A stretch of DNA of 64,000 nt from an uncultured Spirochaetota bacterium. Lineage in GTDB: Bacteria > Spirochaetota > Brevinematia > Brevinematales > JAOACQ01. The stretch covers positions 512,001 through 576,000 of the forward strand of contig CAVYGN010000001.1 in the NCBI GenBank assembly GCA_963768055.1. Direction: 5' to 3'. The notes under the pieces were generated by a model, which saw only the letters and a list, made by a program, of their open reading frames with translations, did no database searches and was not told the origin of the DNA. The position numbers and the translations under genes are program-made. Positions 8,102 through 61,055 of this stretch are shown one piece after another (the stretch's first letter is position 1; every line of letters starts with the position of its first letter).

Positions 8102-8226
8102 TTTATTACCTATAAGCCGGGATAAAGTCAACAAGCATATGCGAATCGAACCTTGTGAGGAATCGATATTATTATATTATAAATTAAGAGGAAAAACAAT
8201 ATTTCAAAATCAAAATGAAAACAACC

Positions 8227-8326
8227 GGAAGTCTTTGCCTATAGGCGCGCACTTTCTTTTTTTATCAAATATCCGGGATAGTATAATCCTGTCGGTGCGG
8301 TCGACGGAAATCCCGGGAAAAGATAA
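8227..8326 (+). promoter_or_regulatory. Conserved palindrome/promoter element (copy 2)
   Basis: GGAAGTCTTTGCCTATAGGCGCGCACTTTC, T-tract, TATAAT (8282-8287), CCTGTCGGTGCGGTCGACGGAAAT; near-identical to 11127-11227. Confidence 0.75.
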
Positions 8327-8377
8327 GATGATGGGATCAAAATAATATCATTCCATAATAAACTCGGAGGTAAGAAA

Positions 8378-9646
8378 ACGGTTAACTTTATAAAGATTAA
8401 AGATACTTTTTGCGTCCTGCCATGGGTGCATTTATTTATCCACAATACCGGAGAACTGAAAGCCTGCCTGGTTTCACAACTATCTTTAGTTAAGGATGAT
8501 AATTCAAGGGAATTTAATGTATCCGATATCGATGACCTGAACGCTATTATGAATTCGAAAATCCTTAAAAAAATCAGGCTCAATATGCTCAAAGGAATAT
8601 GGAATAATACATGCAACAGATGCATGGAACCCGAAAAAGCCGGCGGGTGCATGGAAAGGATCTGGTTTAATAATTTTTTTAAAAATGATATTCTTCGTCT
8701 TTTAAACAATACAAGGGAAGATGGATCGATCGACCCTAAGATATTATTTCTGGATATCAGATTGGGAAACACTTGTAATTTAAGCTGCAAGATGTGTTTT
8801 CCCTATACCAGTAAGAATGTTTTAAAGGATATTGAGAAGATATACCCTGAAAAAAAAGGATATATAAGCCGTTTTAAAGAAATAAAGTGGTTAAAAGACC
8901 CTGTTATCTGGAAGAAGATTTATGGATTAATACCGCATTTAAAGTATGTTTCCCTTGCCGGAGGGGAACCCATGATTATTCCTGAAGCGGCAAATTTTCT
9001 TGAAAAATGTATTACAATGGGCTATTCCCATAATATTGTTGTAAGATATTCCACCAATGTTACAGTGATACGTGAGGGCATAGAAAAGTTGTGGCGGGAA
9101 TTTTCAAAGATAAGGCTGGTATGCAGTATAGATGGATATAATGAAATGAATAATTATGTCCGTTATCCGTCTAATTGGGAGGCGATAAATTCCAACTTGA
9201 AGAAATATGAACGTTATCATAAAGAATATAACCTGGAACTTGTGCAAATAAATACATGCGTTCATGTTATTAATGTTTTTTATCTTAGTGAACTTTATGA
9301 ATATTTAACTTCATGCGAATTTGATTTTATCAGTCCGGCTCCGATGCTTTCCGCGGTGGATAATCCCGAATATCTTAGCTGTAAAATTTTACCCCTGAAA
9401 ATGAAAGAAGAAGTAAAAAATTACCTGATTCAGACAAGGGAAAAATATCGAAATAAAATACCCGGACAATATCTGCAAAATTTAAATTATTTCGATTACA
9501 TTATTGATAATATGTATCTGGAACAAAGAGAAGATTTATTGCCGGTTTTCATTGATTTGAATGATAGATTTGATAAATTGAGGAACCAGGATATTCTTAA
9601 AATAGCCCCGAGATTAAAAGAACTTATGGATAAAAAAAATGGATAA
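8378..9646 (+). CDS. Twitch-domain radical SAM protein (apparent ACG start)
   Basis: GNTCNLSCKMC, AGGEP, SIDG. The N-terminal FCVLPWVH..KAC..CNRC Fe-S motif begins upstream of the track's GTG 8426. GGAGGT lies 6 nt before in-frame ACG 8378. Confidence 0.85.
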   Translation, partial: TVNFIKIKDTFCVLPWVHLFIHNTGELKACLVSQLSLVKDDNSREFNVSDIDDLNAIMNSKILKKIRLNMLKGIWNNTCNRCMEPEKAGGCMERIWFNNFFKNDILRLLNNTREDGSIDPKILFLDIRLGNTCNLSCKMCFPYTSKNVLKDIEKIYPEKKGYISRFKEIKWLKDPVIWKKIYGLIPHLKYVSLAGGEPMIIPEAANFLEKCITMGYSHNIVVRYSTNVTVIREGIEKLWREFSKIRLVCSIDGYNEMNNYVRYPSNWEAINSNLKKYERYHKEYNLELVQINTCVHVINVFYLSELYEYLTSCEFDFISPAPMLSAVDNPEYLSCKILPLKMKEEVKNYLIQTREKYRNKIPGQYLQNLNYFDYIIDNMYLEQREDLLPVFIDLNDRFDKLRNQDILKIAPRLKELMDKKNG

Positions 9647-11084
9647 GAATTTAATTCGATTAGAACATAGCGGGTCTTTTCATAACAAAATATTTATGGT
9701 TAATTGGAATATGACAAATATCTGCAACTTTTCATGCCCCTATTGCAATATTCATGATGGCTCAAGAAAATGGCCGGATTATAAAACGGTTATCAGTTTT
9801 ATTGATAAGATTTGCGCCTATTATATGCGTGAAAAGAAAACGATCTATTTCCAATTAACCGGCGGTGAAATCACTCTTAACCGGGACTTGTTTAAAATAG
9901 CCGATTATTTACATCAAAAGGGATGCTGGGTCGGTTTAATTTCAAATGGCAGCCAGAGTAAAGAATACTGGGAAAAGTTAAAAGACGGGCTCGATTTTAT
10001 TTATCTTTCCTTCCATCCGCAATTTATGAAGAAAGAACATTTTATTAATGTCGTCGAGCTGCTTCATAATGAAGTAACGACGCATGTGAATATAATGATG
10101 GAGTCGAATTCATTTGAAATATGTAAAGATGTCGGCAGGGAAATCAGCGAAAGAATAAATAATATTTCAATGTCTTATCAGCCTCTGGTTAAAGCCCTTG
10201 GAAGTGATTATACATTATTTGACTACACAAGGGAACAACTGGATGAAATTATGAGATTGGAAAAACAAAAGCATATTGCATGTTCCAGGAAAATGAAGAC
10301 TATTCGTGGAACAATGAAAGAAATTTATAATGATGGATTTGAAAATGAAATCAACCAGCCGGAATTACTGGCTGCCGGGAAAAACAATTGGATTGGATGG
10401 AATTGCTGGGCCGGTTTAGAAAGCATTGGAATTAAACAAGAAATAATTTACAGGTCTGTCTGCTGCAGGCAGGATGAAATCGGGAACATAAGAGATGAAA
10501 ATATATCATTCCCATGCGGTCCCGTCGTTTGCAGGACTAATAATTGTACAGACTTTACAACGACAAAAAGAATAAATTTAAAAAACATCTATTATTTCGA
10601 GAATGAAGAAATGAGAAAATTCAAATTGAATTTCCTGGAATTGGATTGGACGGCCGCTTCCGATAGTGTTGAAGGCGGGAAAAGCATTGCAAAAATAACA
10701 GAAGTATCTGGAAAAGGATTGAAAGGGAAATTGATAGTCCGGTTAAGTCAGCTAGGATATTATTATTCTATCATATCCTTCCCATGGAATTTCCAAATTG
10801 ATTTTATCGTTAAAGGGCTGCTGATAAAAATGAATCTGACCAAAGCTAAAATTTTAACTATTCAATGTCCGATTTATTCGGTTAATGATTACGATCATTA
10901 TCAGACACAGATAATCGGTGAGGGTGAACAGGAATATGTAATCGATTTTAATAACCTCCGCCAGCAAGGCTTTGGTGTCAGGACCGAATGGAATGCAACC
11001 GGAATAAAAGAGATCCAATTTATTAATGAGTATTATAAAAATGAAATTGATATTGAGATAAAGGAGATCTATCTATTGTATTAA
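9639..11084 (+). CDS. Radical SAM protein with C-terminal CIA30/CBM11-like domain
   Basis: CNFSCPYC, TGGE, SFHP, Cys-rich CWAG..CCRQ..C..C; C-terminal beta-rich domain (YVIDFNNLRQQGFG..WNATGIKEIQF); paralog of 11605. Confidence 0.8.
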   Translation: MDKNLIRLEHSGSFHNKIFMVNWNMTNICNFSCPYCNIHDGSRKWPDYKTVISFIDKICAYYMREKKTIYFQLTGGEITLNRDLFKIADYLHQKGCWVGLISNGSQSKEYWEKLKDGLDFIYLSFHPQFMKKEHFINVVELLHNEVTTHVNIMMESNSFEICKDVGREISERINNISMSYQPLVKALGSDYTLFDYTREQLDEIMRLEKQKHIACSRKMKTIRGTMKEIYNDGFENEINQPELLAAGKNNWIGWNCWAGLESIGIKQEIIYRSVCCRQDEIGNIRDENISFPCGPVVCRTNNCTDFTTTKRINLKNIYYFENEEMRKFKLNFLELDWTAASDSVEGGKSIAKITEVSGKGLKGKLIVRLSQLGYYYSIISFPWNFQIDFIVKGLLIKMNLTKAKILTIQCPIYSVNDYDHYQTQIIGEGEQEYVIDFNNLRQQGFGVRTEWNATGIKEIQFINEYYKNEIDIEIKEIYLLY

Positions 11085-11126
11085 TGAAACCGAACTTTCA
11101 TTTCGGGAATAATAATAAAAACGACA

Positions 11127-11227
11127 GGAAGTCTTTGCCGATAGGCGCGGACTTCCTTTTTTTATTCAAATATCAGGAAAGGTGTAATCCTGTCGGTGCG
11201 GTCGACGGAAATATTTGGAAAAGATAA
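11127..11227 (+). promoter_or_regulatory. Conserved palindrome/promoter element (copy 3); also terminator-like
   Basis: GGAAGTC TTTGCC GATA GGCGCG GACTTCC, T-tract, TGTAAT, CCTGTCGGTGCGGTCGACGGAAAT. Confidence 0.75.
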
Positions 11228-11297
11228 ACTTAGGTATAAAAAATCATTGTGTGTAAAAAAGTTTATTTATTCAAATTTTACTTTATGGAGGAATGTT

Positions 11298-11564
11298 ATG
11301 GAAAGAAGTTTTGCGATCATGGAAAAAGTTAAAAAGTTATTAGGTGAAGTCGTCGGTAAACCCTCACTTCCCGCTACATTAACCGGCTTGACGGATATTA
11401 TAGCGGATATAGGGCTGAATTCAGTTCAAATGATAAACTTTGTCCTTGTACTGGAAGATGAATTCGCGTTTGAAATAAATTTTGAAAAACTGGATTACTC
11501 AATATTTGAAAGCATCGACACTTTATGCGAATTCATAGGTAACAGTACCGCCAAGGAACAATAA
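11298..11564 (+). CDS. Acyl carrier protein (BtrI-like)
   Basis: 88 aa acidic protein, DIGLNSVQMINFVLVLEDEF phosphopantetheine motif; RBS GGAGG before ATG 11298. Confidence 0.85.
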   Translation: MERSFAIMEKVKKLLGEVVGKPSLPATLTGLTDIIADIGLNSVQMINFVLVLEDEFAFEINFEKLDYSIFESIDTLCEFIGNSTAKEQ

Positions 11565-11604
11565 TCATATCTCACCGGTGTTGATCGGTGTTAAGGAATG
11601 AATA

Positions 11605-12588
11605 ATGAATAAAGGCAAGTTACCATTACATTATGCTCATGAGAATATCAAGCATGCGAATATGCTGGTGGTGGGCTGGCAATACGGCGACAATTGCAAC
11701 CTTAAATGCTCCTATTGTCCGTTATGTTTGCACAGCGGATCAACCAAATGGCTGGAGCTGTCGGTTTCAAAGAAATTTATCGATAAAATTATATCCTATT
11801 ATAAAGACCGCCTGGGTAAAGACATCTATTTTGATTTTTCAGGCGGTGAAATCACCCTGTATCAGGAATTGATCGAATTGGTAAATTATATAAAAGCGAG
11901 GGGATGTTATTCGGGTATTTGCACAAATGGTAAAAGAAGCATCGACTATTGGGAAAAAACAGCCCCTTACCTGGATCACATAAATCTCAGCTATCATCCC
12001 GGATTCAAGTATAAAGATTTATTTTTCCGGGTTGTTCAATATCTTCAAGATAAGGTTTCCTGCCACATTAATATTATGATGCACCCTGATTATTTCGATG
12101 AATGTGAAGAATTGGGGCTGAAAATATCGAATTCAATCCGCAACGCGTCGATCAGCTTTCAGGCTCTGTATATATTGCTCGGCGTCCCGTCTTTAATGAG
12201 TTACTCAAATGATCAATTATCGAGTCTCAAAAAACTGAACAAAGAAACCAGAATATTTTGGGATAAGGAGCCCTTTACATACAGGGGAAGAATGAAAAAG
12301 ACATATATCGATCATACGTCTGACACAATAACGCAGCCCGACATAATAATTAATGAAGAAAACCACTGGAAGTCATGGAAATGCTGGGGCGGGCTGGAAC
12401 AGATTGTAATAAACAAGAAGGAAGAGGTTTTCAGAGCATGGTGCGAGCAGGATAAAATCGGTAAAATCAGGGATGCCGACCTGATATTCCCGGGAAACCC
12501 CGTAATCTGCAAAAAAGACACATGTTCATGCGGTTTTGACGTACTCTGCACTAAAAGTAATATGTCTTCTGGATCAGGTATTTTATGA
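11605..12588 (+). CDS. Radical SAM protein
   Basis: CNLKCSYC, SGGE, SYHP, C-terminal CWGG..C..CKKDTCSC. Confidence 0.85.
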   Translation: MNKGKLPLHYAHENIKHANMLVVGWQYGDNCNLKCSYCPLCLHSGSTKWLELSVSKKFIDKIISYYKDRLGKDIYFDFSGGEITLYQELIELVNYIKARGCYSGICTNGKRSIDYWEKTAPYLDHINLSYHPGFKYKDLFFRVVQYLQDKVSCHINIMMHPDYFDECEELGLKISNSIRNASISFQALYILLGVPSLMSYSNDQLSSLKKLNKETRIFWDKEPFTYRGRMKKTYIDHTSDTITQPDIIINEENHWKSWKCWGGLEQIVINKKEEVFRAWCEQDKIGKIRDADLIFPGNPVICKKDTCSCGFDVLCTKSNMSSGSGIL

Positions 12589-13937
12589 ATGGAAAAACAG
12601 TTGTCATGGGTATGTTTGACTCTGAAAAATTCTGGAGAGATGAGAAATCAACCAAGCTGCCTGAAATCATTGACAACTCATCAAATAATATCGTATCAAC
12701 AATGGATGAATTGTTATTTCCACTATGCGGAAAAGAGGACCTTCTCTTAACCAGGTACAGGTTTCAACCTGAATTAAAAAGTTATCTGGACAGTATTGGT
12801 ATTTCATTTAACAGCAATGAAAAGGATCTTCTGGATGTGAATAAAGAGGCGGCCGATTCTAAAGATAAATGCGTTTTTGAGCTTTTAAACAGTCAGAGGC
12901 AAAATTGTTATTTCAAGAATTTACTTAAAGGTTTTTCCACAATAAACACCTATGCCATTCTCCCAAATACCGCGTCAGCATACAAAAATTGGGGTTTGGG
13001 TGAAATTAAGCCGGCGTATGAAATTGTTAAAAAAGTAAACTCAAAAATTTACTCGCATGAGGTTTGTGAACGTATCGGTATAAAAAATTATGGAATGATC
13101 ATAAATAAAAGCAATGAACTCGAAAAGGCAGCTGTAAGATATGGAAACGGACGGGGATTTTTGATAAAAGACCCATATGGTGTCTCCGGAAAAGGAAACT
13201 TATTAATAAGCTCGCGAAAGATGCTCGGAATTATAGAAAAATATTTGGCCTTCCAGGAAGGAAAAGGGTTATCAACCCGGTTCCTGGTTGAACCGTATCA
13301 TGATAAGGTTCATGACTTTTCCTGCCAGATAATAATCGGCCAAAATGGGAAACATGAGGTTTTATCGGTACAGGACATTTATAATCAGTATTTTTCCTAT
13401 TCCGGTTCAATGAGCGCTGATCGGGAATTTATAGATTTCCTGGATGATAATAATTATTTCAATATTATAAGAAAGACAGCCGGAGAATTAGCCGGAGAAG
13501 GCTATATAGGAAATGTTTGTATTGATTCCATGATTTTACAGAACGGCGAGATTGTGCCAATAGTTGAAATTAATGCCAGGAAATCAATGGGATTGATTAA
13601 TTATTACCTTGACAAGTTCCTCGCCCCTTTTTCAGCAAAAAGTTATTTATCATTCTTCTCTGCCGGTTATAAAAACGATATTAAATTTGATGAAATCCTG
13701 AGTAAGTTCAGGGTAAGCGGTTTATTATTTTGCCCTGAAAAAGGATCCGGCCTTATACCATTATCCTGTAATACTTTGTTTATTAACCGGAATAGAGGGC
13801 AAACATCAGGCAGAGGTTCGTTGTATATGGGAAAATTTTATTTTTCAGCTGCGGCGAACCTGCCCGCAGAAAGACAAAACATAACCGGCGATGCTGATAA
13901 GATTTTAAAATCGCTGAATCTTTCAATATATAATTGA
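12585..13937 (+). CDS. ATP-grasp ligase (BtrJ-like ACP-amino acid ligase)
   Basis: IKDPYGVSGKG, LVEPY, CIDSM, VEINARKSMG ATP-grasp motifs; ACP gene nearby. The BtrJ assignment is from recalled family resemblance. Confidence 0.75.
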   Translation: MNGKTVVMGMFDSEKFWRDEKSTKLPEIIDNSSNNIVSTMDELLFPLCGKEDLLLTRYRFQPELKSYLDSIGISFNSNEKDLLDVNKEAADSKDKCVFELLNSQRQNCYFKNLLKGFSTINTYAILPNTASAYKNWGLGEIKPAYEIVKKVNSKIYSHEVCERIGIKNYGMIINKSNELEKAAVRYGNGRGFLIKDPYGVSGKGNLLISSRKMLGIIEKYLAFQEGKGLSTRFLVEPYHDKVHDFSCQIIIGQNGKHEVLSVQDIYNQYFSYSGSMSADREFIDFLDDNNYFNIIRKTAGELAGEGYIGNVCIDSMILQNGEIVPIVEINARKSMGLINYYLDKFLAPFSAKSYLSFFSAGYKNDIKFDEILSKFRVSGLLFCPEKGSGLIPLSCNTLFINRNRGQTSGRGSLYMGKFYFSAAANLPAERQNITGDADKILKSLNLSIYN

Positions 13938-13948
13938 TGAGGAAACCG

Positions 13949-15589
13949 ATGGAAAACAGATGTGATTTCGATCCGCGCAGGATTAATTTCTGGAATGATA
14001 CTTATAATCTTATTAAGCATTTAAATTATAAAGTATATGTCAATTTCGATTGGTCGACATTCAAGGATAGAAAATTCCCCTTCATAGGCGCCGTGCATAT
14101 AGACAATCTGGCTATGCTGAAAAAGAGCCTTTTGGATAACCAAATCATTATAACGAATATCCAGACACCTCATTATAGGGGGATTTATTTTGAACCCTCC
14201 CCGGAATGTCCCGGGTTGATTATCGCCCCTATGAAGGAGACGGACACATTTAAACAGGATCTCCGAGAACTCAGGTTTTTTGGAAAAGAGCATAATATTG
14301 TAAATTTGAATTTTATGGATGATTTATCAGGCGGGCTTCTATTGAAAAATATCGAGTACATAGTAATCAGTATGGCCGGATTTTACCATAAGGATTTTAT
14401 TGAATTGCAGACAGCAAATACCTCTTTCAAACCTTTTAAAACCGCTTTCTGGTGCGACATCTATTCTTTGATGAAGCAAAAATCACTTGCAGCATATATA
14501 GATTTTGACTGGAAGACATTTGAAAACAGGAAGTTTATAATTATTGGAGCAGTAAAAAATGAAAATTTCGAACATGTAAAAAATAGTTTGACTGATCAAA
14601 AATTTAAAACTGAGCGTATCGAGACTTTTCATTATATTATCCTTTATTTCGAGTTTACCGCGGATTTATTCGGAATATTTATTACCCCCAAGAATGAAAT
14701 GATGGCTATGGATCAGAGTATTATCAATTCAGACCTTGAATTTATCACACTCTCGGAATTAAAAGAAGCCGGCAGAAAAAACGGTATTGAAAATCTGGCA
14801 TCTGTCGATTTGCTATCATGTACACTGATAAAAGGATTATATGAATTGATGATGCGGGAAATTCATGAAATCACTGCCAATAAAATGAGGCTCATTTCAT
14901 ATAAAAACAGCCATATGGAATACATAAAAAATTATCTGGATTATAAAAATAGAAATATTCTCGATCATGAAATACAGGATTACCATATTAAGAAGTTCAG
15001 CGGTCTGTATTACCTCGAAATAAAAATAATTTCGGAATTACTGGAAGACCCTGACATTTCCATACATGATGCCGGTACCAATGTCGCTCACTTTCCACTG
15101 TTATTAAGCGCCTTGTCCGGGGAAGAATTGTTCGGGCTGAATATATCTCAAATTATAGCATCGGATAACATATGGACGGGTGAAATGCCTATTTATGATA
15201 TTTTAAAGGACAATCCGGGGTATAAACAGATACATTTTATAAAACTTGATTTAATCAAAGAAATTCAAAACTCTCCCGGAACAGATGTAATAATTGCCAA
15301 TGATGTTTTAGAACACCTCCCTGACGATGAAACATCTTTTAAGGTATTAAAGGGGCTCTGGAATAAAACCGGAAAGCTTCTGATTGTCCATGTGCCTTTT
15401 GAAAACATACCCAACCCTCAATGGGGGCATTGCATCACTTTTAATGAAGAAAAAATAAAAAATTGGGCAAACCGGCTGCCGGGCGGCAAGTCCCTTCCGC
15501 AACACTTATATGAGGATGAAATGCGGTATTTTATCGGAGGAGGCTTTTTAGTCGTTTCCAGAGAGGATGAACAAACCACCCTTGAATAA
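13949..15589 (+). CDS. Repeat-module protein with C-terminal class I SAM methyltransferase
   Basis: Two ~150 aa FW..Y.L.K..FDW.TF..RK modules, then IHDAGTN, IIASD, DVIIANDVLEHL; RBS GAGGA before ATG 13949. Confidence 0.65.
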   Translation: MENRCDFDPRRINFWNDTYNLIKHLNYKVYVNFDWSTFKDRKFPFIGAVHIDNLAMLKKSLLDNQIIITNIQTPHYRGIYFEPSPECPGLIIAPMKETDTFKQDLRELRFFGKEHNIVNLNFMDDLSGGLLLKNIEYIVISMAGFYHKDFIELQTANTSFKPFKTAFWCDIYSLMKQKSLAAYIDFDWKTFENRKFIIIGAVKNENFEHVKNSLTDQKFKTERIETFHYIILYFEFTADLFGIFITPKNEMMAMDQSIINSDLEFITLSELKEAGRKNGIENLASVDLLSCTLIKGLYELMMREIHEITANKMRLISYKNSHMEYIKNYLDYKNRNILDHEIQDYHIKKFSGLYYLEIKIISELLEDPDISIHDAGTNVAHFPLLLSALSGEELFGLNISQIIASDNIWTGEMPIYDILKDNPGYKQIHFIKLDLIKEIQNSPGTDVIIANDVLEHLPDDETSFKVLKGLWNKTGKLLIVHVPFENIPNPQWGHCITFNEEKIKNWANRLPGGKSLPQHLYEDEMRYFIGGGFLVVSREDEQTTLE

Positions 15590-15605
15590 AAAGGAAGTAT
15601 GAGAG

Positions 15606-17711: not shown

Positions 17712-17726
17712 ACAAAGGAACATGAC

Positions 17727-18860: not shown

Positions 18861-18861
18861 A

Positions 18862-19959: not shown

Positions 19960-19974
19960 AGACAGGAGAACCCG

Positions 19975-21147: not shown

Positions 21148-21160
21148 GAGGAGATATGAT

Positions 21161-22309: not shown

Positions 22310-22320
22310 GAAAGGTTTAT

Positions 22321-24099: not shown

Positions 24100-24112
24100 G
24101 AGGGAAATTATT

Positions 24113-25105: not shown

Positions 25106-25114
25106 AAGGATTTT

Positions 25115-26464: not shown

Positions 26465-26469
26465 AAATA

Positions 26470-27018
26470 TATGGAGGTAAGCATGGCTGAGATATCAGGC
26501 GGAATGATCACATATTTTGGTAAAGAAAATGATGTAAAGGCATATGTTTCAAGACGGGCCGGGGAAACTTTCAAACCTGCCCTTGTAATCGCCCATGAAA
26601 TATGGGGGCTTAACGGGCATGTCAAGGACCTGGCCGATCAATTCGCTAGACAGGGCTTCACAGTAATCGCTCCCGATCTTTACTCTTCTTCAGCCTTCGA
26701 CGGGATACTGACCGGGCAGGAAATACAATGCTTGCTGGATTTCTCATCGTCGCTGGTCCGTGACAGATTGGCCGTCCCGTCTTACTTGAGTAATGAAATA
26801 TCAAAACTTCCCGGGGAAAAGAGGGGTATGATTCGGAGAATAATCCGGATTTTCAGCGGCGGCATACCCAAATATAAATTACTTTGCGAGCTGTCAAAAG
26901 CGGCGGCTCATCTCGGATCATGGAAATACGCTGCCGCCGGTAAAATCAGGCTGATAAACGTTACACCCGCCGGTTCATACCCGGCATTGATATCATTTGA
27001 GGATTTGGAATTGTTTTA
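26470..27018 (+). repeat. 549-bp direct repeat, identical by eye to 29862-30410
   Basis: Line-by-line comparison found no mismatch; offset 3392 bp. Confidence 0.85.
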
Positions 27019-28144: not shown

Positions 28145-28166
28145 GTTGTTTATATAGGCGGTAATT

Positions 28167-29843
28167 ATGGCAAAGATATCCCGTGCAATGATAACATATT
28201 CCGGTAAAGAAAATGATGTAAAGGCATATGTTTCAAGACAGGCCGGGGAAACTTTCAAACCTGCCCTTGTAATCGCCCATGAAATATGGGGGCTTAACGG
28301 GCATGTCAAGGACCTGGCCGATCAATTCGCGAGGCAGGGCTTCACAGCAATAGTTCCCGATCTTTACTCTTCTTCAGCCTTCGACGGGATACTGACCGGG
28401 CAGGAAATACAATGCTTGCTGGATTTCTCATCGTCGCTGGTCCGTGACAGATTGGCCGTCCCGTCTTACTTGAGTAATGAAATATCAAAACTTCCCGGGG
28501 AAAAGAGGGATATAATTCGGAGAATAATCCGGATTTTCAGCAGCGGCGGCATACCCAAACATAAATTACTTTGCGAGCTGTCAAAAGCGGCAACTCATCT
28601 CAGTGCACTGAAATACGCTGCCGCCGGTAAAATCAGGCTGATAAATGTTACACCCGCCGGTTCATACCCGGCCTTGATATCGCCCGGGGATATTGAAATG
28701 TTTTATAGTATCCGCTATGAAGACAGGCATAAAAATGATCAGGAGGAATTATTGAAAGATTTAAACCCGATAACGGCGGAACTGCTCAGTCTTGTAAGAA
28801 AAGGGGAAGAAAAGCTCTACTGCGCTTTTCCCTTTACAAATCTTCACCTCACATCGATTGGAATAAATTGCTGCTGCTGGATTTGGGATATCGAAGGATA
28901 TAACAATATTTCACCGGAAGAGGGGAATGATCTCGCAAAAGCATGGAAGAGCGAGGCCTTTCAGAGGGTCCGTGAATCGATCCGGGACGGTTCATATAAG
29001 CATTGCCGGCTGGACTGCTGCCCCTTTGTCAGGGGGGAGAGGACAAACCTATCGACCCTTAATGAAATGCGGAACTCTCATCCTGAAATCGCTGATTTTA
29101 TTGAAGGCAAAGTTCTTGAGTATTCCGGTATGCCGAGTTTCATCAATATCTCCTTAGACACCGCGTGCAACCTCAAGTGCCCCTCGTGCAACCGGCTTCT
29201 TCTTCCGAAAATACCTTGCGGAACCAAGACTGTAATTATCAATTCACTTAAAACCGTCAATATAAATTTAAAAAAAATATTTCTTGCCGGTATGGGCGAG
29301 CCTTTTTTCAGCCCCGTATATATGGACTGGATGATGAATTTCCGCAGAGAGGATTTTCCAGCCCTCAAAGAAATAGGCATCAATACAAACGGCCTGAAGC
29401 TGACCCCGGCCCTGTGGAAGAAATTACCCGCCGATTTGAAAAGCCTTATCAACTCTCTCACCGTATCGATTGACGGGGCGACAGCGGCGACATACGAGAA
29501 AAACAGGCCGGGGGGATCTTTCAAAACGCTTCTGGAAAACCTGGCCTTTTTCAAGGAATTGCGCGACGGCGGAAATATCGGGCATCTCGGGGCGTATTTT
29601 GCCTATCAGAAGAACAATTACAGGGAGACACTGGAAATGATAGAATTGGCGCGCTCTTTCTCATTCGATCTGGTCTTTTTTGAAAGACTTAAGAATTGGG
29701 GGGCGTACGAACCCGCGTCATACCGGCGGCGCGATATAGGCAATCCAGAGCACCCCGGACATCAAGATTTTCAAGCGGTCAAAAAAAGAATAAATGATTA
29801 TAATAAGATCCATTCAATCCCCCAGATCGTTTTTATGAGCTGA
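28167..29843 (+). CDS. DLH-fragment / radical SAM fusion, copy 2
   Basis: Same architecture as copy 1; CNLKCPSC. Confidence 0.8.
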   Translation: MAKISRAMITYSGKENDVKAYVSRQAGETFKPALVIAHEIWGLNGHVKDLADQFARQGFTAIVPDLYSSSAFDGILTGQEIQCLLDFSSSLVRDRLAVPSYLSNEISKLPGEKRDIIRRIIRIFSSGGIPKHKLLCELSKAATHLSALKYAAAGKIRLINVTPAGSYPALISPGDIEMFYSIRYEDRHKNDQEELLKDLNPITAELLSLVRKGEEKLYCAFPFTNLHLTSIGINCCCWIWDIEGYNNISPEEGNDLAKAWKSEAFQRVRESIRDGSYKHCRLDCCPFVRGERTNLSTLNEMRNSHPEIADFIEGKVLEYSGMPSFINISLDTACNLKCPSCNRLLLPKIPCGTKTVIINSLKTVNINLKKIFLAGMGEPFFSPVYMDWMMNFRREDFPALKEIGINTNGLKLTPALWKKLPADLKSLINSLTVSIDGATAATYEKNRPGGSFKTLLENLAFFKELRDGGNIGHLGAYFAYQKNNYRETLEMIELARSFSFDLVFFERLKNWGAYEPASYRRRDIGNPEHPGHQDFQAVKKRINDYNKIHSIPQIVFMS

Positions 29844-29874
29844 TTTATTGTCTTTGCTGTTTATGGAGGTAAGC

Positions 29875-31545
29875 ATGGCTGAGATATCAGGCGGAATGAT
29901 CACATATTTTGGTAAAGAAAATGATGTAAAGGCATATGTTTCAAGACGGGCCGGGGAAACTTTCAAACCTGCCCTTGTAATCGCCCATGAAATATGGGGG
30001 CTTAACGGGCATGTCAAGGACCTGGCCGATCAATTCGCTAGACAGGGCTTCACAGTAATCGCTCCCGATCTTTACTCTTCTTCAGCCTTCGACGGGATAC
30101 TGACCGGGCAGGAAATACAATGCTTGCTGGATTTCTCATCGTCGCTGGTCCGTGACAGATTGGCCGTCCCGTCTTACTTGAGTAATGAAATATCAAAACT
30201 TCCCGGGGAAAAGAGGGGTATGATTCGGAGAATAATCCGGATTTTCAGCGGCGGCATACCCAAATATAAATTACTTTGCGAGCTGTCAAAAGCGGCGGCT
30301 CATCTCGGATCATGGAAATACGCTGCCGCCGGTAAAATCAGGCTGATAAACGTTACACCCGCCGGTTCATACCCGGCATTGATATCATTTGAGGATTTGG
30401 AATTGTTTTACATTATACGAAATGAAGAAAATAAAAATATTAAAGGCAGAGAAGCGTTTTTGAAAGATTTAAACCCGATAACGGCGGAACTGCTCAGTCT
30501 TGTAAGAAAAGGGGAAGAAAAGCTCTACTGCACTTTTCCCTTTACAAATCTTCACATCACCTCTAATGGAATTTATTGCTGCAGCTGGTTACTGGGAGTG
30601 GAAGGATTTAACAATGTTTCACTGGAAGAGGGGAATGATCTCGCAAAAGCATGGAAGAGCGAGGCATGTCAAAGGGTCCGTGAATCGATCAGGGACGGTT
30701 CATATAAGCATTGCCGGCTGGACTGCTGCCCCTTTGTCAGGGGGGAGAGGACAAACTTATTGACGCTTAATGAAATGCGTAACCATTATCCTGAAATCGC
30801 GGATTTCATTGAAGGCAAAGTTCTTCAGTATCTAAAAATGCCGAGTTTTGTCAATATCTCCTTAGACACCGCGTGCAACCTCAAGTGCCCTTCGTGCAAC
30901 CGGCTTCTTCTTCCGAAAATACCCTTCAGGGCCAAATCAGGTATTATTAATTCACTCAAAACCATTAATAAAGATTTGAAAATAATCTTTATAGCCGGAA
31001 TGGGCGAGCCTTTTTTCAGTCCCGTATATCTTGACTGGATGATGAATTTCCGCAGGGAGGATTTTCCAGCCCTTAAAGAAATAGAAATCAAAACAAACGG
31101 CCTGAAACTGATCCCGGCCCTATGGGAGAAATTACCCGCCGATTTGAGAAGCATTGTCAACTGGTTCACAGTATCGATTGACGGGGCGACAGCGGCGACA
31201 TACGAGAAAAACAGGCCGGGGGGATCTTTCAAAACGCTTCTGGAAAATCTGGCCTTTTTCAAGGAATTGCGCGACAGCGGAAGCATAGGGCGTCTCAAGG
31301 CGTACTATACGTATCAGCTGAACAATTACGGAGAGATGCCGGAAATGATAGAATTGGCAAAACGGTTCTCATTCGATCTTGTCTTCTTTGAAAGACTGAG
31401 GAATTGGGGGGCCTACAAACCCGCGTCATACCGGCGGCGCGATATAGGCAATCCGGAGCACCCCGGCTATAAGTCTTTTCAAACAGTTAAAGATATGATA
31501 AATAAAATGACCGGCCAGGGCCCGAAGATAATATTTACCAATTAA
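29875..31545 (+). CDS. DLH-fragment / radical SAM fusion, copy 3
   Basis: Same architecture; RBS GGAGGT before ATG 29875. Confidence 0.8.
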   Translation: MAEISGGMITYFGKENDVKAYVSRRAGETFKPALVIAHEIWGLNGHVKDLADQFARQGFTVIAPDLYSSSAFDGILTGQEIQCLLDFSSSLVRDRLAVPSYLSNEISKLPGEKRGMIRRIIRIFSGGIPKYKLLCELSKAAAHLGSWKYAAAGKIRLINVTPAGSYPALISFEDLELFYIIRNEENKNIKGREAFLKDLNPITAELLSLVRKGEEKLYCTFPFTNLHITSNGIYCCSWLLGVEGFNNVSLEEGNDLAKAWKSEACQRVRESIRDGSYKHCRLDCCPFVRGERTNLLTLNEMRNHYPEIADFIEGKVLQYLKMPSFVNISLDTACNLKCPSCNRLLLPKIPFRAKSGIINSLKTINKDLKIIFIAGMGEPFFSPVYLDWMMNFRREDFPALKEIEIKTNGLKLIPALWEKLPADLRSIVNWFTVSIDGATAATYEKNRPGGSFKTLLENLAFFKELRDSGSIGRLKAYYTYQLNNYGEMPEMIELAKRFSFDLVFFERLRNWGAYKPASYRRRDIGNPEHPGYKSFQTVKDMINKMTGQGPKIIFTN

Positions 31546-31561
31546 ATTATAAGGAAAAGAT

Positions 31562-34477
31562 ATGAAATACAGTTTTGTGATTCCAACCTTCAATAATAAA
31601 ATATTGTTAAAGAACACGCTTGAAGCGCTGAATTATCAGCCGGGTTACGGCCATTATGAAGTGATAGTCGTTGACGACGGATCATCGGATGACACATATA
31701 AATACATCAAAGGAACGGCCCGGAATTATAATCTAAAATATTATTATCTTGAACGCTGCAGGGATTCCTGCAGGGCCAGGACAAGAAATCATGGATGGAA
31801 AAACGCCGAAGGCGAAATCATCGCTTTCATCGATTCCGATATCATTGTAAAACCGGATTATCTCTCTGAGCTGGACAGGTGTTTTTCAATGGGCAGGGAT
31901 ATTATCGTCATCGGCAACAGGCTTTTACTCAACGATCAGACAGCTTACCTGGATGTAGCTAGCGGTGATATTTTCAAAAAATACCGTTTCGATGGTAATC
32001 TTGATATTCTAGAGTTCAGATACCTGATTTTTCAATTCATGTCTTTTAACGCCGGTTCAATCAACCGGCCCTGGACGCAGGTTTACAGCTGCAACATGGC
32101 GCTTCCTAAAAAATGGCTTGAAAAGACAGGCGGATTCGACGAGAATTTTAAGGGCTGGGGAGTCGAGGATATCGACTTCGGATATTCAATGTTCAGGCAA
32201 AATGTTAAAATTATTATCAGTTCGAAGCTGGAGGTATTGCATCAATTTCATGGGGTCAGGAATGACCTTATTATAAGCAATGAAAACATCGGGAGATATA
32301 ATGAGAATATCAAATATTTCCTGACAAAATATCCGGAAGCGCTCGGGATGTCCAAAGAAAAGGCATATAAATTTTTAAGAGGGGAGGAATCGGAAGACGC
32401 GGCGCCTGAAATCCCGGGATTGAAGTATATCGGTATAGATTTCAGGGAAAAAAAGAGCCTGAAAAGCCTGAAAAAACTGATTTTGAATTCCATGAAAAAA
32501 AAGAATGAGATTGTAGTCGTTAACGATTATGTCGAGGATACAGATCTGGATATCTGGCTTCAGCATTTAGAAGGAAATGTAAATTCTGCCGCCAGATATT
32601 TTCCGATGTCCAAAAGGATCGATATAGAAACCGCAGTGGAATACTTGAAAAATGAAAAGGAAAGGCAGAGGAAAGCCGAGGTTTTAAAAACCGAGGATAC
32701 CCTCCTGCAGAAAATGTACGGGAATGGATGGGAGAGGAGAGTGATCGGCAAGGCCGATCCGATACCAGGCCGTGAAAATTCCCGCTATTCCTGGGTAAAA
32801 ACAAATGTATTTGGTAAGAAAATACTGGAAATAGGATGCTCGTCTGGTTACGGCACGAAATATTTAAAATACATTGGCGGGCTTGATTATTTGGGCATTG
32901 ACTATGACAGGGCTGTTATAGGGTTAGCAGTGAAGGAATTCGGGGAAGAGGGTAAAATCCGCTTTGAAAACCATGATATTCATGAATACCTGTCATACAT
33001 GGAAGCGAACAAAATAAGATACGACACGATAATAGCCCTGGAGATATTGGAACATATTGCTGACGGGTTGGAATTAGCCCAAAAATTAAAGAAATTCTGC
33101 GGCAGGCTGCTGATAAGTATGCCTTACAAAGAAAAGGAGGGATACTGGGGCTGTTACCATCTTATTCATGGCATTGAAGAAACCGATCTGAAGGGCTTTC
33201 ATATTGTTTTTCTGCATGACGACGGAACTCTTTCCGACAGGCCAAGCGGTTCTGAAAGTGATTTAATGCTGGCATCCTGGAAAAAGCAGGATAATAATAT
33301 CAAAATCAAGATTTACGCCGGGCTGGTTTGCCCGAGACGGTCGATCGATTACAAAAAATTGGAAATATACTTCCGTATGAACGGCTGTTATGTTACAGAG
33401 AAACCGGAAGATGCCACTCATATTATCCTTGTTACATGCGGTTTTATAGACAGAAATATCCGGGAATCTTTTGAACTGATCAATATATTGAGAAAATATC
33501 CCGGCAAATTAATTGTAGCCGGCTGCCTCTATGATATTATCAGGGAAAAAGTTACGGATCAATTTGACGGCAGCATACTGACTACCAAACATATGGAGAA
33601 GATAGATGAATTATTCCCTGATTTTGTTTATAAGTGGAAAGATATTCCCGACGCGAACTCTATGCATAATTATGAAGAGATTAACAAGCTGATCGGCAAT
33701 AAGAAAGAAATGACAGAAGAGTTTTTTTACGACAGGAACAAATTCGAGGATTGGGAACATAATTTCCTTATCCGGATAGGGGAAGGCTGTAATTTCAACT
33801 GCACATATTGTTCCCATATAAAGGCTATAGGAAGGCTGCATAGTAAAAGCATGGATGAATGTATCAGGGAATTTAAACTCGGCTACCGGCTCGAGTACAG
33901 GCTTTTCAGGATCACATCAATGGATATCGGGAGTTATGGAACTGATATTAACCTGACGTTTCCGTTTTTATTGAACCGGATGTTATCGGAGGCGGAAGAC
34001 ACCATATTCGTTCTGGAAGATATTAATCCTGTCTGGCTGTTAAAATATGAGAAAGAACTATTGCCGATAATAGAGAGGAAAAGAATTAAAATGATCCAGC
34101 TCCCCACACAGTCCGGAAGCTTGAGAATACTGGAGAAAATGCGGAGATGGCATGATGTTGACAAGCTTATAAAATTATTAAAATCAATAAAAAAAGCCGA
34201 TCCGGATATCCTGTTAGCAACCGAGATCATTATCGGGTTTCCGACAGAAACCAGCCATGATTTTGAAGAAACTTTGAAGTTTTTAAAGCTTGCGCAATTC
34301 AGTTTTTCTTATATTTATCCATATTACGAAAATGAGTATATCGAATCCTATAAAATAACCCCGAAATGTGATAAGAAAACAATTGAAGAAAGGCTGGAAA
34401 AGGCAAAATCATTCTGCGGGAAAAACCGGATAAGCTATTCGATAATGCTTAATAATAATGAAGGAGTTAACAAATGA
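31562..34477 (+). CDS. Triple fusion: GT2 + class I MTase + MiaB/RimO-like methylthiotransferase-type radical SAM
   Basis: VDDGSSD/FIDSD; ILEIGCSSGYG/ALEILEH; UPF0004-like C.RR..D, VTCGF, VAGCL; GCNFNCTYC, QSGS.RIL..MRR, IIIGFPTET; no TRAM domain. Confidence 0.8.
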   Translation: MKYSFVIPTFNNKILLKNTLEALNYQPGYGHYEVIVVDDGSSDDTYKYIKGTARNYNLKYYYLERCRDSCRARTRNHGWKNAEGEIIAFIDSDIIVKPDYLSELDRCFSMGRDIIVIGNRLLLNDQTAYLDVASGDIFKKYRFDGNLDILEFRYLIFQFMSFNAGSINRPWTQVYSCNMALPKKWLEKTGGFDENFKGWGVEDIDFGYSMFRQNVKIIISSKLEVLHQFHGVRNDLIISNENIGRYNENIKYFLTKYPEALGMSKEKAYKFLRGEESEDAAPEIPGLKYIGIDFREKKSLKSLKKLILNSMKKKNEIVVVNDYVEDTDLDIWLQHLEGNVNSAARYFPMSKRIDIETAVEYLKNEKERQRKAEVLKTEDTLLQKMYGNGWERRVIGKADPIPGRENSRYSWVKTNVFGKKILEIGCSSGYGTKYLKYIGGLDYLGIDYDRAVIGLAVKEFGEEGKIRFENHDIHEYLSYMEANKIRYDTIIALEILEHIADGLELAQKLKKFCGRLLISMPYKEKEGYWGCYHLIHGIEETDLKGFHIVFLHDDGTLSDRPSGSESDLMLASWKKQDNNIKIKIYAGLVCPRRSIDYKKLEIYFRMNGCYVTEKPEDATHIILVTCGFIDRNIRESFELINILRKYPGKLIVAGCLYDIIREKVTDQFDGSILTTKHMEKIDELFPDFVYKWKDIPDANSMHNYEEINKLIGNKKEMTEEFFYDRNKFEDWEHNFLIRIGEGCNFNCTYCSHIKAIGRLHSKSMDECIREFKLGYRLEYRLFRITSMDIGSYGTDINLTFPFLLNRMLSEAEDTIFVLEDINPVWLLKYEKELLPIIERKRIKMIQLPTQSGSLRILEKMRRWHDVDKLIKLLKSIKKADPDILLATEIIIGFPTETSHDFEETLKFLKLAQFSFSYIYPYYENEYIESYKITPKCDKKTIEERLEKAKSFCGKNRISYSIMLNNNEGVNK

Positions 34478-34758
34478 GTTCGAGGAAAACGATCGGAGTA
34501 AGTATTAGTAAAAGTTACTTTATCGCCTATATTGAATCGGACGGCATTCATAAAATAACGAGGTACCCCGATAATAAAAATGGTATTAATAGTTTTTTGG
34601 ATGAACTGGATGACAATACGGTTATCGGGATAGAAAGACGCGGCCGGTCCGGCGCTTTTATTAAATCGATCAAGCATCTGATAAAAGAATATATATTGCT
34701 TTGTCATGAAGATTTTATTACTTTTATCAGCCTTACAGACAAAGAAATTAACGAATAG
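34474..34758 (+). pseudogene. IS110-family transposase N-terminal remnant
   Basis: IGVSISK..YPDNKNGI..VIGIERRG resembles IS110 GIDxSK..FxNxxxG..VxxExTG; only 94 aa, first catalytic Asp replaced. Confidence 0.5.
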
Positions 34759-34769
34759 GAGAAGGAGAA

Positions 34770-35471
34770 ATGAAGAATTATGTTTTAATTTTAATCGCGA
34801 TGTTTACAATTAATCCGCTTTTTACTAAGCCGGTTTATTCAGAAGACAAAGACATTAAACTTGAAGATCATCAATCAAGCCTTAATGTGGATTTGATAAC
34901 TGTTCTTCAAAATCGTAAATCGACACGGGGGTTTACCGATAGGGAAATATCATTGAAAGATCTGTCCACAATCCTATGGGCAGCAAATGGGATCAATCGT
35001 TATGATGGAAAAAGAACTGCTCCTTCACTTATGGGCATATATTTTATCCAGATCTATGTAACATCTTCCAATGGAACCTATCACTATGATCCGCCAAGCT
35101 CAACACTGAAATTCTTTTCAGATAAGGACTTAAGAGGGATTCTTGGCCGTCATAGTGTCGGCGGTATGTATGACATTCCAAAAGCAAGCTATGTTCTGAT
35201 TTTGACGGCCAGACTTTATATGGCGCCTATATCGGAACCTTACGGTATTGATAAAGTCAGCAGGATAAATTATGCACACTCTACAGCCGGCTGCATAGCG
35301 GAAAATGTATATATTACTGCTGCTGCCCTTGGAATCGGAACACGAATTGCCGCAAATATCAATTTCAAAGAAATTATTGAAGAATTGAGGCTTGGCGAGG
35401 ATGAAATCCCGCTCTACATAATGCCTCTTGGTTATCCGAATGCATCCGGGTCAGATCATCTATTTAAATAA
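34770..35471 (+). CDS. Nitroreductase (SagB/ThcOx-like) with signal peptide
   Basis: RKSTRGF, LSTILWAANG, RTAPS, GCIAENVY..AAALGIGT, IMPLGYP; hydrophobic N-terminus. Confidence 0.85.
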   Translation: MKNYVLILIAMFTINPLFTKPVYSEDKDIKLEDHQSSLNVDLITVLQNRKSTRGFTDREISLKDLSTILWAANGINRYDGKRTAPSLMGIYFIQIYVTSSNGTYHYDPPSSTLKFFSDKDLRGILGRHSVGGMYDIPKASYVLILTARLYMAPISEPYGIDKVSRINYAHSTAGCIAENVYITAAALGIGTRIAANINFKEIIEELRLGEDEIPLYIMPLGYPNASGSDHLFK

Positions 35472-61051: not shown

Positions 61052-61055
61052 ACCT

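Follow-up and report, generated by a model that had tools for sequence, protein, structure and literature searches.

A widespread carrier protein–ATP-grasp cassette lies at the core of a radical SAM-rich gene cluster that may direct synthesis of an exported glycoconjugate in an uncultured spirochaete

What kind of product, if indeed a single one, is made by a tight run of genes that encodes eight radical S-adenosylmethionine (SAM) domains, four glycosyltransferases and an export pump? The question is raised by a locus of an uncultured Spirochaetota bacterium (lineage Brevinematia; Brevinematales; JAOACQ01), located within positions 512,001–576,000 of contig CAVYGN010000001.1 (assembly GCA_963768055.1), a stretch of 64,000 nucleotides (nt) that we refer to as the window and on which all positions are counted. 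We find that the locus contains a cassette of four genes, which code for an acyl carrier protein (ACP), an ATP-grasp ligase, a GT-B glycosyltransferase and a radical SAM/SPASM enzyme, and that this cassette is a widespread core, not unique to this genome; what is rare is the set of fusions that this genus has added. The reading that we favor, and to which we give an even chance, is that an acyl or aminoacyl aglycone primed on the ACP would be glycosylated, radically tailored, methylated and exported as a secreted low-molecular-weight glycoconjugate. The region is probably one biosynthetic island with two co-regulated transcription units. A preliminary description of the locus had likewise proposed that it makes a glycoconjugate which is heavily modified and exported and whose pathway belongs to no standard cluster class. 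None of our results contradicts this proposal, which is supported by co-occurrence and synteny, and no characterised match to the cluster was found in the literature and curated family libraries searched.

Region 8426–35471 contains 20 successive open reading frames (ORFs), all of them on the + strand (Table 1; genes are designated by their first position in the window). The ORF listing thus yields the tightly packed, co-oriented set of about 20 genes that had been announced, except that the span does not start at 8378, the first start being a GTG at 8426. Neighboring ORFs overlap by 4–11 nt or are separated by 1–40 nt at every junction but one, namely that preceding the ACP ORF, where the gap is 111 nt to the listed start and 213 nt to the likely start, 11298. 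Terminator scans of two stretches revealed no prominent intrinsic terminator in the cluster: in the first stretch, terminator-like sites numbered 27 versus 16.2 (standard deviation 3.6) in shuffled sequence, each of them a short and weak stem, and in the second 11 versus 12.1. Promoter-like sites stayed at or close to the level of shuffled sequence, with 57 versus 61.6 and 28 versus 25.6 in the two stretches, and neither scan is informative about operon structure.

The eight radical SAM domains are carried by 8426, 9639, 11605, 19975 (together with SPASM), 26471, 28167, 29848 and the C-terminus of 31562, with exactly one CX3CX2C motif per domain (8/8). The four glycosyltransferases comprise three GT2 enzymes recognized by Pfam (17727, 21137 and the N-terminus of 31562) and one GT-B enzyme (18862), and the three methyltransferase domains comprise a clear one in 31562 (residues ~418–521) and two weak ones, below cut-off, at the C-termini of 13934 and 15606. 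These totals agree with those of the preliminary description, as does the presence of an ACP, an ATP-grasp enzyme, an ABC (ATP-binding cassette)–HlyD–TolC exporter and a nitroreductase; Pfam accounts for all of them but the fourth glycosyltransferase, which comes from a structure model, the ATP-grasp enzyme, which comes from profile alignment, and the two weak methyltransferase domains, which come from matches below cut-off in NCBIfam. Altogether, five proteins of the cluster (12585, 18862, 13934, 15606 and 34474) have no Pfam match at E ≤ 0.001. Pfam and NCBIfam scans of the 20 cluster proteins also bear out the absences noted at first: no polyketide synthase (PKS), non-ribosomal peptide synthetase (NRPS), aminotransferase or sugar-phosphate cyclase domain was detected, and no obvious precursor of a ribosomally made, post-translationally modified peptide (RiPP). 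The same scans detected in the cluster no polyprenyl-phosphate priming transferase, flippase, polymerase, Wzx, Wzy, Wzm or Wzt, and no RiPP recognition element (RRE)/PqqD, C39 peptidase or other leader-processing domain. No precursor-peptide gene was found in the cluster, whose tight spacing leaves no space for an unannotated one. Transmembrane (TM)-like segments are confined to the exporter proteins, with the exception of the hydrophobic first β-strand of 18862, which sits in the N-terminal Rossmann-like domain of the structure model.

What identifies the members of the cassette? In the ACP, residues G39, S42 and Q44 are invariant in an alignment of 9 homologs, S42 being the phosphopantetheine-attachment serine; the genome encodes a single phosphopantetheinyl transferase (PPTase), outside the cluster. 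The ligase, 12585, has a Pfam match of its own that stays below threshold (ATP-grasp_3, 18.7 bits, cut-off 23.2). The profile of its family, however, aligns with a Paenibacillus protein containing PreAtp-grasp, ATP-grasp and PGM1_C (hhalign, 99.7% over 412 columns) and matches PDB entry 8ynd, named an ATP-grasp peptide ligase, with an E-value of 1.2e-6; in addition, E328, N330 and R332, which form an E-x-N-x-R motif, are invariant across 21 homologs. DUF3182 is weakly matched by 4 of 21 family members and CPSase_L_D2 by 3 of 21. According to PMC4431377, BtrJ-like enzymes belong to the same ATP-grasp clade as carbamoyl-phosphate synthases, and DUF3182 has affinity to that clade. Searches yielded 432 homologs of 12585 at E ≤ 0.001 among 6311 candidates scored; the family is separate from the PGM1-like ligase of the Paenibacillus loci, the two sharing 22–24% identity.

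The structure model of 18862, built from a 15-sequence alignment (pLDDT 90.3, predicted local distance difference test), makes it a GT-B glycosyltransferase with two Rossmann-like domains: of the 338 PDB matches that Foldseek returned at E ≤ 0.001, UGT109A1, MurG and CalG3 came first (TM-score 0.54–0.61), and LanGT2 is likewise among the top hits (E ~1e-9). As for 19975, no NCBIfam equivalog scored above its cut-off and a PDB sequence search was empty. Neither Pfam nor NCBIfam holds a curated family for the cassette ATP-grasp enzyme or GT-B enzyme, and NCBIfam has none even for the Paenibacillus copies.

To what extent does this gene set recur? A scan of one genome per species gave 457 places with a relative of the ATP-grasp gene, from which the best 80 were kept as a set of related loci; the counts of cassette genes over these 80 loci are lower bounds, since some loci end at contig edges and a short ACP is easily missed by tblastn. 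An ACP homolog lies at most 500 nt upstream of the ATP-grasp gene and on the same strand in 52 of the 80 loci, a homolog of 18862 at most 600 nt downstream in 76, and 69 contain a homolog of 19975 (identity of 40% or more across half its length or more). The full set of four genes is found in 58 loci. Hence the prospect, raised in the preliminary description, of genes that never co-occur elsewhere can be set aside, all the more so as the cluster is syntenic in a second genome of the genus (see below). Paenibacillus contributes 51 of the 80 loci, and the rest come from Clostridium and other Bacillota, Nostoc and other cyanobacteria, Methylococcaceae, Thiothrix, Anaerolineales and Spirochaetota.

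The companions of the cassette were counted by clustering all ORFs of the 80 loci and running Pfam on representatives. They include an ABC ATPase (57 loci), paired ABC-2 permeases (50), a 353-residue protein of no assigned family (28), a GFO/IDH/MocA oxidoreductase (25), a class I methyltransferase (18), an AMP-binding enzyme (18), an FkbM methyltransferase (17), a second ACP (14), an NAD-dependent sugar epimerase/dehydratase (14), a BtrH_N-like protein (14) and a pyridoxal phosphate (PLP) decarboxylase (13). Occasional companions are β-ketoacyl-ACP synthase III (KAS III)-like enzymes, UDP-glucose dehydrogenase, a nucleotidyl transferase, a sulfotransferase with adenylyl sulfate (APS) kinase, and a pyruvyl transferase; a luciferase-like monooxygenase stands beside cassette relatives in 4 loci. 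As an observation in its own right, in the Paenibacillus polymyxa group (locus L051 of Paenibacillus jamilae, 2971–15133, and 8 similar loci) a second, PGM1-like ATP-grasp gene and a second ACP gene are interleaved with the cassette. These loci, which also hold a BtrH_N-like protein, a GFO/IDH/MocA oxidoreductase and a PLP decarboxylase, closely parallel the butirosin side-chain set and sit in culturable strains.

The cassette is scattered closer to home. Among 40 related genomes, two carry the ATP-grasp gene, namely G003, which belongs to the same genus (66% identity), and G006 (39%), and the family is present in 3 of 400 other genomes of an even sample of the phylum. In a FastTree phylogeny of 80 ATP-grasp sequences (15 of 94 clustered proteins, with <33% identity or <380 residues, were left out), the window and G003 group with L021, a Spirochaetaceae metagenome-assembled genome (MAG), and L020, a Bacillota MAG, with a support of 1.0, and this group adjoins a Clostridium/Bacillota clade. 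Such a placement, combined with the patchy distribution in the phylum, fits horizontal spread, for which we draw no direction. L021 is the closest related locus: it contains 3 N_Twi-like radical SAM genes, 2 11605-like genes beside the ACP gene, an FkbM fusion and 2 GT2 genes, as well as a B12-type radical SAM enzyme and an exporter of the ABC-2 type.

Does the cluster hang together as a unit? In G003, 16 of the 20 genes lie in the same order, with 62–88% identity, and the whole order from the ACP gene to the gene of the 94-residue protein is kept, whereas the downstream flank differs. The ortholog of 8426 is a 17th gene (82% identical), inverted and located ~9 kb upstream of the ACP gene. The orthologs of 13934 and 15606 form a single ORF of 1247 residues. 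Synteny and identity together indicate that the cluster is more than a chance assembly.

A second link within the region is a repeat of ~100 nt, present upstream of both 8426 and the ACP gene. The two copies are 87% identical and there is no third copy in the genome; G003 has two shorter copies (at ~18521–18700 and ~12786–12960 of its locus L019), which stand upstream of the 8426 ortholog and of the regulator gene leading into the ACP gene. An inverted repeat (AAGTC...GACTT), a TATAAT-like box and a conserved GC-rich hairpin of 20 nt are common to all four aligned copies; the element also includes a T-run. Folding z-scores are −0.85 and −2.2, and no Rfam family matches the window at gathering scores. 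A riboswitch was considered and dropped, the best hit of a permissive Rfam search (RT-18, 18 bits, E 1.4, within 8100–8500) being at the level of chance and the copies looking like an operator with a −10 box. The repeat is probably a shared promoter/operator or leader module that would control both units, and its presence before each of them supports the inclusion of 8426–11084 in the system. An AraC-type regulator gene, divergent from the cluster, is split in the window into two overlapping ORFs, 4795–6645 and 6614–8134. Its counterpart in G003, which adjoins the cluster too, is a single ORF of 1111 residues (72–76% identical); the split is either a frameshift, which would make the gene a pseudogene, or an assembly error.

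Table 1. Features of the cluster and its control region, with the basis of each assignment (positions in the window)
Feature	Position	Strand	Basis
Divergent AraC-type regulator	4795–8134	−	Pfam: HTH_18, periplasmic-binding-like domains; membrane N-terminus (TM-like segments)
Repeat, ~100 nt, copy 1, upstream of 8426	8227–8345	+	sequence comparison
Radical SAM enzyme, N_Twi_rSAM member (N-terminal Cys-rich domain + twitch)	8426–9646	+	NF033640, 311.8 bits (cut-off 170)
Radical SAM enzyme, 11605 paralog over residues 1–311 + 170-residue C-terminal domain of unknown kind	9639–11084	+	Pfam, 53.8 bits
Repeat, copy 2, upstream of ACP gene	11127–11227	+	sequence comparison
ACP, ~88 residues, dedicated	11298–11564	+	PP-binding, 27.8 bits; listed ORF start 11196
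Radical SAM enzyme with Cys-rich C-terminus	11605–12588	+	Pfam, 39.7 bits; no equivalog
PGM1-like ATP-grasp ligase, cassette signature enzyme	12585–13937	+	profile alignment, PDB profile match, invariant residues
Two copies of a ~150–170-residue domain of unknown kind + class I methyltransferase	13934–15589	+	BLASTP repeats, protein atlas
Three copies of the same ~150–170-residue domain + class I methyltransferase; 13934 paralog	15606–17711	+	BLASTP repeats
Soluble GT2 with ~140-residue C-terminal extension	17727–18860	+	Pfam; no TM-like segment
GT-B fold glycosyltransferase, GT1/GT28-like	18862–19959	+	structure model + Foldseek
Radical SAM/SPASM enzyme	19975–21147	+	Pfam: Radical_SAM 57.0 bits, SPASM 46.6 bits
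Soluble GT2	21137–22309	+	Pfam, 87 bits
ABC half-transporter without peptidase domain	22321–24099	+	Pfam: ABC_membrane + ABC_tran
HlyD-type adaptor	24113–25105	+	Pfam: HlyD
TolC-type outer-membrane channel	25115–26464	+	Pfam: OEP
Tandem paralog 1, degenerate dienelactone hydrolase (DLH)-like N-terminal domain + N_Twi-like radical SAM module	26471–28144	+	Pfam, NCBIfam, alignment
Tandem paralog 2, same architecture	28167–29843	+	Pfam, NCBIfam, alignment
Tandem paralog 3, same architecture	29848–31545	+	Pfam, NCBIfam, alignment
Triple fusion GT2 + class I methyltransferase + MiaB/RimO-like methylthiotransferase, without TRAM	31562–34477	+	Pfam, NCBIfam
94-residue protein of unknown function	34474–34758	+	no family; 66% identical in G003
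Nitroreductase-family protein, pathway membership doubtful	34770–35471	+	Pfam, 59.9 bits

The genes that surround the cassette are distinguished above all by their fusions. The three tandem paralogs combine an N-terminal domain of ~200 residues with an N_Twi-like radical SAM module. The former matches dienelactone hydrolase (PF01738) only at profile positions 2–54 of 217, and no nucleophile-elbow motif was seen when the alignment of this domain was read by eye. The latter scores 60–70 bits against NF033640, whose cut-off is 170, so that the fusions are related to N_Twi_rSAM but are not members; for 26471, the Pfam Radical_SAM score of 28.3 bits falls just below the cut-off of 29.5, with 82–87% identity to the two paralogs that pass. 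The module is common (453 matches at E ≤ 1e-30), but the fusion is not: the three-copy arrangement recurs in G003 only among the 40 related genomes, and a single other full-length relative, from G003, was found among 1.84 billion representatives, the other 148 of the 150 best matches aligning only from residue ~185–325 on (mostly 205–219), bar one among them that starts at residue 98. In 40 multidomain carriers that were scanned, the N_Twi-like module is joined to GT2 in 4, a sulfotransferase in 2, a methyltransferase in 2 and LysM in 2, which fits a sugar substrate. Further N_Twi-like radical SAM genes are present in the source genome at C2:1249049–1250122 and C2:1606336–1606956 (77 and 76 bits, below cut-off); the former shares 32% identity with the tandem fusions in their radical SAM part.

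The divergence of the three copies is unevenly distributed. Within each genome the paralogs are homogenised: in the window, identity between copies 1 and 3 is 100% in alignment columns 1–150 and 98% in the 50 that follow, whereas columns 201–250 are the most divergent segment (55–76% identity) and alone keep one-to-one orthology with the G003 copies (72, 68 and 67%). From this pattern we infer an old triplication, with gene conversion and selection for three specificities; the single divergent segment points to where substrate specificity may lie. With regard to the other radical SAM enzymes, 8426 has its CX3CX2C motif at residue 117 and a single weak match in a PDB sequence search; 9639 is 38% identical to an L021 gene, its C-terminus weakly matching CIA30-like proteins (E 0.03); and 11605 is 78% identical to its G003 counterpart and 39% identical to the gene directly before the ACP gene in L021.

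The second unusual fusion, 31562, carries three cysteines in its UPF0004 region (Cys590, Cys626 and Cys655) and a CX3CX2C motif at 743, all conserved in G003. It aligns with positions 9–354 of the 429 of TIGR00089 (175.8 bits, below the cut-off of 251), and neither Pfam nor NCBIfam matches a TRAM domain in it. G003 is the one other place where the triple fusion was seen; in two metagenome proteins, the methylthiotransferase module (51–53% identity) is attached to an FkbM methyltransferase. Its fusion to GT2 and methyltransferase domains in 31562 makes both tRNA and ribosomal proteins improbable substrates. The N-terminus of 31562 and 21137 are both paralogs of 17727, and the best PDB match of 21137 is chondroitin synthase (E 9e-22).

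Between the cassette genes lie 13934 and 15606, over which a domain of 150–170 residues without known family is repeated five times. Their C-termini match MftM-like methyltransferases (E 5e-7 for 13934 and 1e-4 for 15606, both far below cut-off), and the nearest protein-atlas clusters of 13934 are all class I methyltransferases (score 0.96), while residues 1–490 of 15606 gave no usable atlas match. The model of 13934 is poor (mean pLDDT 54, ~80 in the repeats); in a wide structural search with it, nucleotidyltransferase-fold proteins appeared at Z 5–7, a range common for that search. Elsewhere among the related loci, these two proteins are represented by a methyltransferase tail only, in L055. 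The exporter genes 22321–26464 are syntenic and 70–88% identical in G003; most cassette relatives have ABC-2 transporters instead, and an ABC/HlyD/TolC pump is what one expects in a cell with an outer membrane. Finally, no homolog of the 94-residue protein was found in the 80 related loci, and the nitroreductase-family protein scores 43.7 bits as SagB-like, below the cut-off of 78.4.

How might these genes work together? Gene content, folds, motifs, synteny and co-occurrence are observed, and every substrate and every reaction of the following scheme is inferred. The ACP would be made holo by the single PPTase of the genome, and the PGM1-like ATP-grasp enzyme would load an amino acid or another carboxylic acid on it, or extend one, following the logic of BtrJ and BtrI. 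The constant adjacency of the two genes and the lack of an adenylating enzyme in most loci (AMP-binding enzymes occurring in 18) leave the ligase as the only candidate loader there. The GT-B enzyme would then attach a first sugar, the radical SAM/SPASM enzyme would remodel the carrier-bound aglycone or this sugar, and the three paralogous soluble GT2 enzymes would extend a short sugar chain. A role in sugar chemistry is argued for by the GT-B and GT2 enzymes and, in the relatives, by enzymes of nucleoside diphosphate (NDP)-sugar metabolism, the sulfotransferase/APS kinase and the pyruvyl transferase; the lack of TM-like segments in the enzymes (bar the strand in 18862) and of polymer-assembly domains points to a soluble, non-polymer route. 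The four N_Twi-type and two 11605-type radical SAM enzymes could contribute oxidation, epimerisation, deoxygenation, or C–C or C–S chemistry, with the three tandem fusions keeping three distinct specificity segments. The three SAM methyltransferase domains would methylate the product, to which the TRAM-less MiaB/RimO-like domain may add a methylthio group, before the ABC/HlyD/TolC pump moves it across both membranes.

Several points weigh against this scheme. The argument for a coupling of the ACP with the ATP-grasp enzyme is one of adjacency and analogy; since PGM1-type ligases join peptides through amide bonds, 12585 may not act on the ACP at all. The named families closest to 19975 are for the most part maturases of peptides or proteins, all of them far below cut-off. 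In the cluster, no thioesterase or product-releasing transferase is recognizable and there are no genes for NDP-sugar synthesis, and all of the chemistry, the product included, is predicted from genes. As to the limits of the pathway, 8426 and 9639 are not syntenic in G003, 9639 has no counterpart in the 40 kb examined there, and the nitroreductase has no homolog in that 40-kb region. The synteny thus defines a secure pathway core, 11298–34758, with 8426 and 9639 as probable members and the nitroreductase as a doubtful one, and the true pathway may be shorter than the span 8426–35471.

If the product were not a secreted metabolite, it could be a component of the cell envelope: an acyl chain would come from the ACP, the head group or repeat unit of a glycolipid or polysaccharide would be the work of the glycosyltransferases, and the pump would deliver the product into the outer membrane or past it. 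We consider this unlikely, with several points in its favor: the GT2 enzymes are polysaccharide-like (EpsD-like at 83–115 bits, besides the chondroitin synthase match), MsbA, HepA and glucan exporters are among the family matches of the ABC protein, relatives hold polysaccharide pyruvyl transferase, sulfotransferases and KAS III-like, AMP-binding and ACP genes, and the N_Twi-like module is also fused to LysM. The heterocyst glycolipid exporter of cyanobacteria is, moreover, a pump of the ABC/HlyD/TolC type that places its substrate in or beyond the outer membrane. Yet the cluster has none of the priming, flipping, polymerising or transport functions (polyprenyl-phosphate transferase, Wzx, Wzy, Wzm, Wzt) of such systems, no acyltransferase or fatty-acid synthase gene is found among the window proteins scanned, the glycosyltransferases have no TM-like segment (the hydrophobic strand of 18862 belonging to its Rossmann-like domain), and all ABC family scores are below cut-off; the patchy occurrence, in 3 of 400 phylum genomes, also suits an accessory metabolite more than an envelope component. 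A classical polysaccharide locus was rejected, since priming and polymerising genes are lacking, as was an aminoglycoside/aminocyclitol cluster, since Pfam and NCBIfam detected no sugar-phosphate cyclase or aminotransferase. A mycofactocin system was rejected too, all scores being far below cut-off.

The kinship of the ATP-grasp enzyme with PGM1-like ligases, and with the named peptide ligase 8ynd, opens another route, in which the ATP-grasp enzyme acts as a peptide ligase, and the radical SAM/SPASM and SagB-like proteins as maturases, of a glycosylated, cross-linked RiPP or other peptide. Several radical SAM proteins are indeed nearest to peptide-maturase families, the ABC protein scores 342–380 bits with bacteriocin exporters, RimO-type methylthiotransferases act on protein, and a 94-residue protein is conserved at the 3' end. 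We nonetheless judge this improbable: besides the gene spacing, which leaves no room for a hidden precursor, and the lack of RRE/PqqD, C39 or other leader-processing domains, all scores with RiPP equivalogs fall far short of their cut-offs, G003 lacks the SagB-like gene in the 40 kb examined, and the 80 loci contain no cross-genus family of small ORFs (18–59 residues), the largest one covering 8 loci, all Paenibacillus, with the caveat that RiPP precursors vary greatly and can be encoded elsewhere in a genome. Finally, the span could be a mosaic of independent head-to-tail operons (the cassette, an efflux pump and unrelated radical SAM genes) without a single product, as the displaced 8426, the missing 9639 and nitroreductase in G003, the exporter type unlike that of most relatives, and add-on genes not found in the 80 related loci might suggest. 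This we hold to be highly improbable, because the order from the ACP gene to the 94-residue protein gene is fully kept in G003 (62–88% identity) next to a differing downstream flank, gaps are ≤40 nt with no prominent intrinsic terminator, the exporter genes lie amid enzyme genes, the repeat element links the first unit to the second, and L021 has the same kinds of add-ons around its cassette.

What would the carrier-based glycoconjugate pathway that we favor mean? If its logic holds, it would be a route to glycosylated metabolites that standard genome mining misses (there being no PKS, NRPS or RiPP precursor), and it would extend the N_Twi-type radical SAM and MiaB/RimO methylthiotransferase families to new substrates. 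An odd single cluster also becomes a testable family, with many relatives in culturable Paenibacillus and Clostridium. None of the enzyme superfamilies is new; their combination, like the cassette and the fusions, is undescribed in the libraries and literature searched. A full-text literature search, at the level of titles and starts of abstracts and with subscription journals uncovered, found no description of the cassette, of the N_Twi function or of the glycosyltransferase–methylthiotransferase fusion, and a characterised cluster with the same gene set, the other finding against which the preliminary description had measured itself, surfaced neither there nor in the curated family libraries. 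A further-reaching proposal, which we put forward tentatively and regard as rather unlikely, is that the cassette defines a new and widespread class of natural products, in which an oligosaccharide is built on a carrier-tethered aglycone and rewritten by radical enzymes; the spirochaete would add the first methylthiotransferase with a sugar or small molecule as substrate in place of tRNA or a ribosomal protein, and three radical SAM fusions of diverged specificity, each of which would edit a sugar of its own.

Two other regions of the window deserve mention. In a type I restriction–modification system (51036–58324; HsdM, HsdS and HsdR), a Fic-domain gene separates hsdM from hsdS. At 60476–63674 on the − strand, genes for a serine-type CDP-alcohol phosphatidyltransferase and a cytidylyltransferase flank one for a radical SAM/SPASM enzyme (NirJ2-like, 120 bits, below cut-off), adjoining an MsbA-like ABC transporter gene (58736–60448, + strand); this may be an operon for lipid head groups in which one step is catalyzed by a radical SAM enzyme.

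Among known systems, the butirosin pathway offers the closest parallel to the cassette. In the synthesis of its 4-amino-2-hydroxybutyrate (AHBA) side chain, the ATP-grasp enzyme BtrJ loads or extends an acid on the ACP BtrI, and BtrK, BtrO/V, BtrH and BtrG take part as well. The pathway is reported to have been described by Li and colleagues in 2005 and by Llewellyn and colleagues in 2007. Like the butirosin cluster, the window has a dedicated ACP beside an ATP-grasp enzyme, no adenylation domain, a sugar-tailoring setting and radical SAM enzymes of the twitch/SPASM type, and the analogy receives indirect support from the cassette relatives that adjoin BtrH_N-like proteins, PLP decarboxylases and luciferase-like monooxygenases. 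The window differs in that its ATP-grasp enzyme forms a separate family, in that Pfam and NCBIfam detect among its 20 cluster proteins neither a decarboxylase or monooxygenase nor a BtrH-like transferase, 2-deoxy-scyllo-inosose synthase or aminotransferase, and in its 8 radical SAM domains and 4 glycosyltransferases.

Mycofactocin shares with the proposed product the idea of a small, redox-tailored aglycone bearing a methylated sugar chain. In that system, glycosylation and methylation involve the GT2 enzyme MftF and the methyltransferase MftM, next to the radical SAM/SPASM enzyme MftC. The soluble GT2 enzymes of the window match MftF (60–78 bits), its methyltransferase tails weakly match MftM, and a radical SAM/SPASM enzyme is present in the cluster. 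The best scores are, however, 47.7 bits for MftC (cut-off 265), 78.1 for MftF (280) and 29.2 for MftM (200), the MftA precursor, MftB, MftD and MftE are absent from the window, and an ACP and an ATP-grasp enzyme take the place of the ribosomal peptide.

The methylthiotransferase domain of 31562 resembles MiaB, RimO and MtaB in its UPF0004 cysteine triad and radical SAM CX3CX2C motif and departs from them in its score below the TIGR00089 cut-off, in its fusion to GT2 and methyltransferase domains, and in lacking TRAM, the domain that binds the RNA or protein substrate in known methylthiotransferases. As to the exporter, its ABC protein has no C39 peptidase and starts directly at the membrane domain, and it reaches no family cut-off. 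Its three adjacent genes, with ABC_membrane and ABC_tran, HlyD and OEP domains, are those of a tripartite ABC/membrane-fusion protein/TolC exporter, an architecture that serves type I secretion and is also used for glycolipid export, by DevBCA–HgdD.

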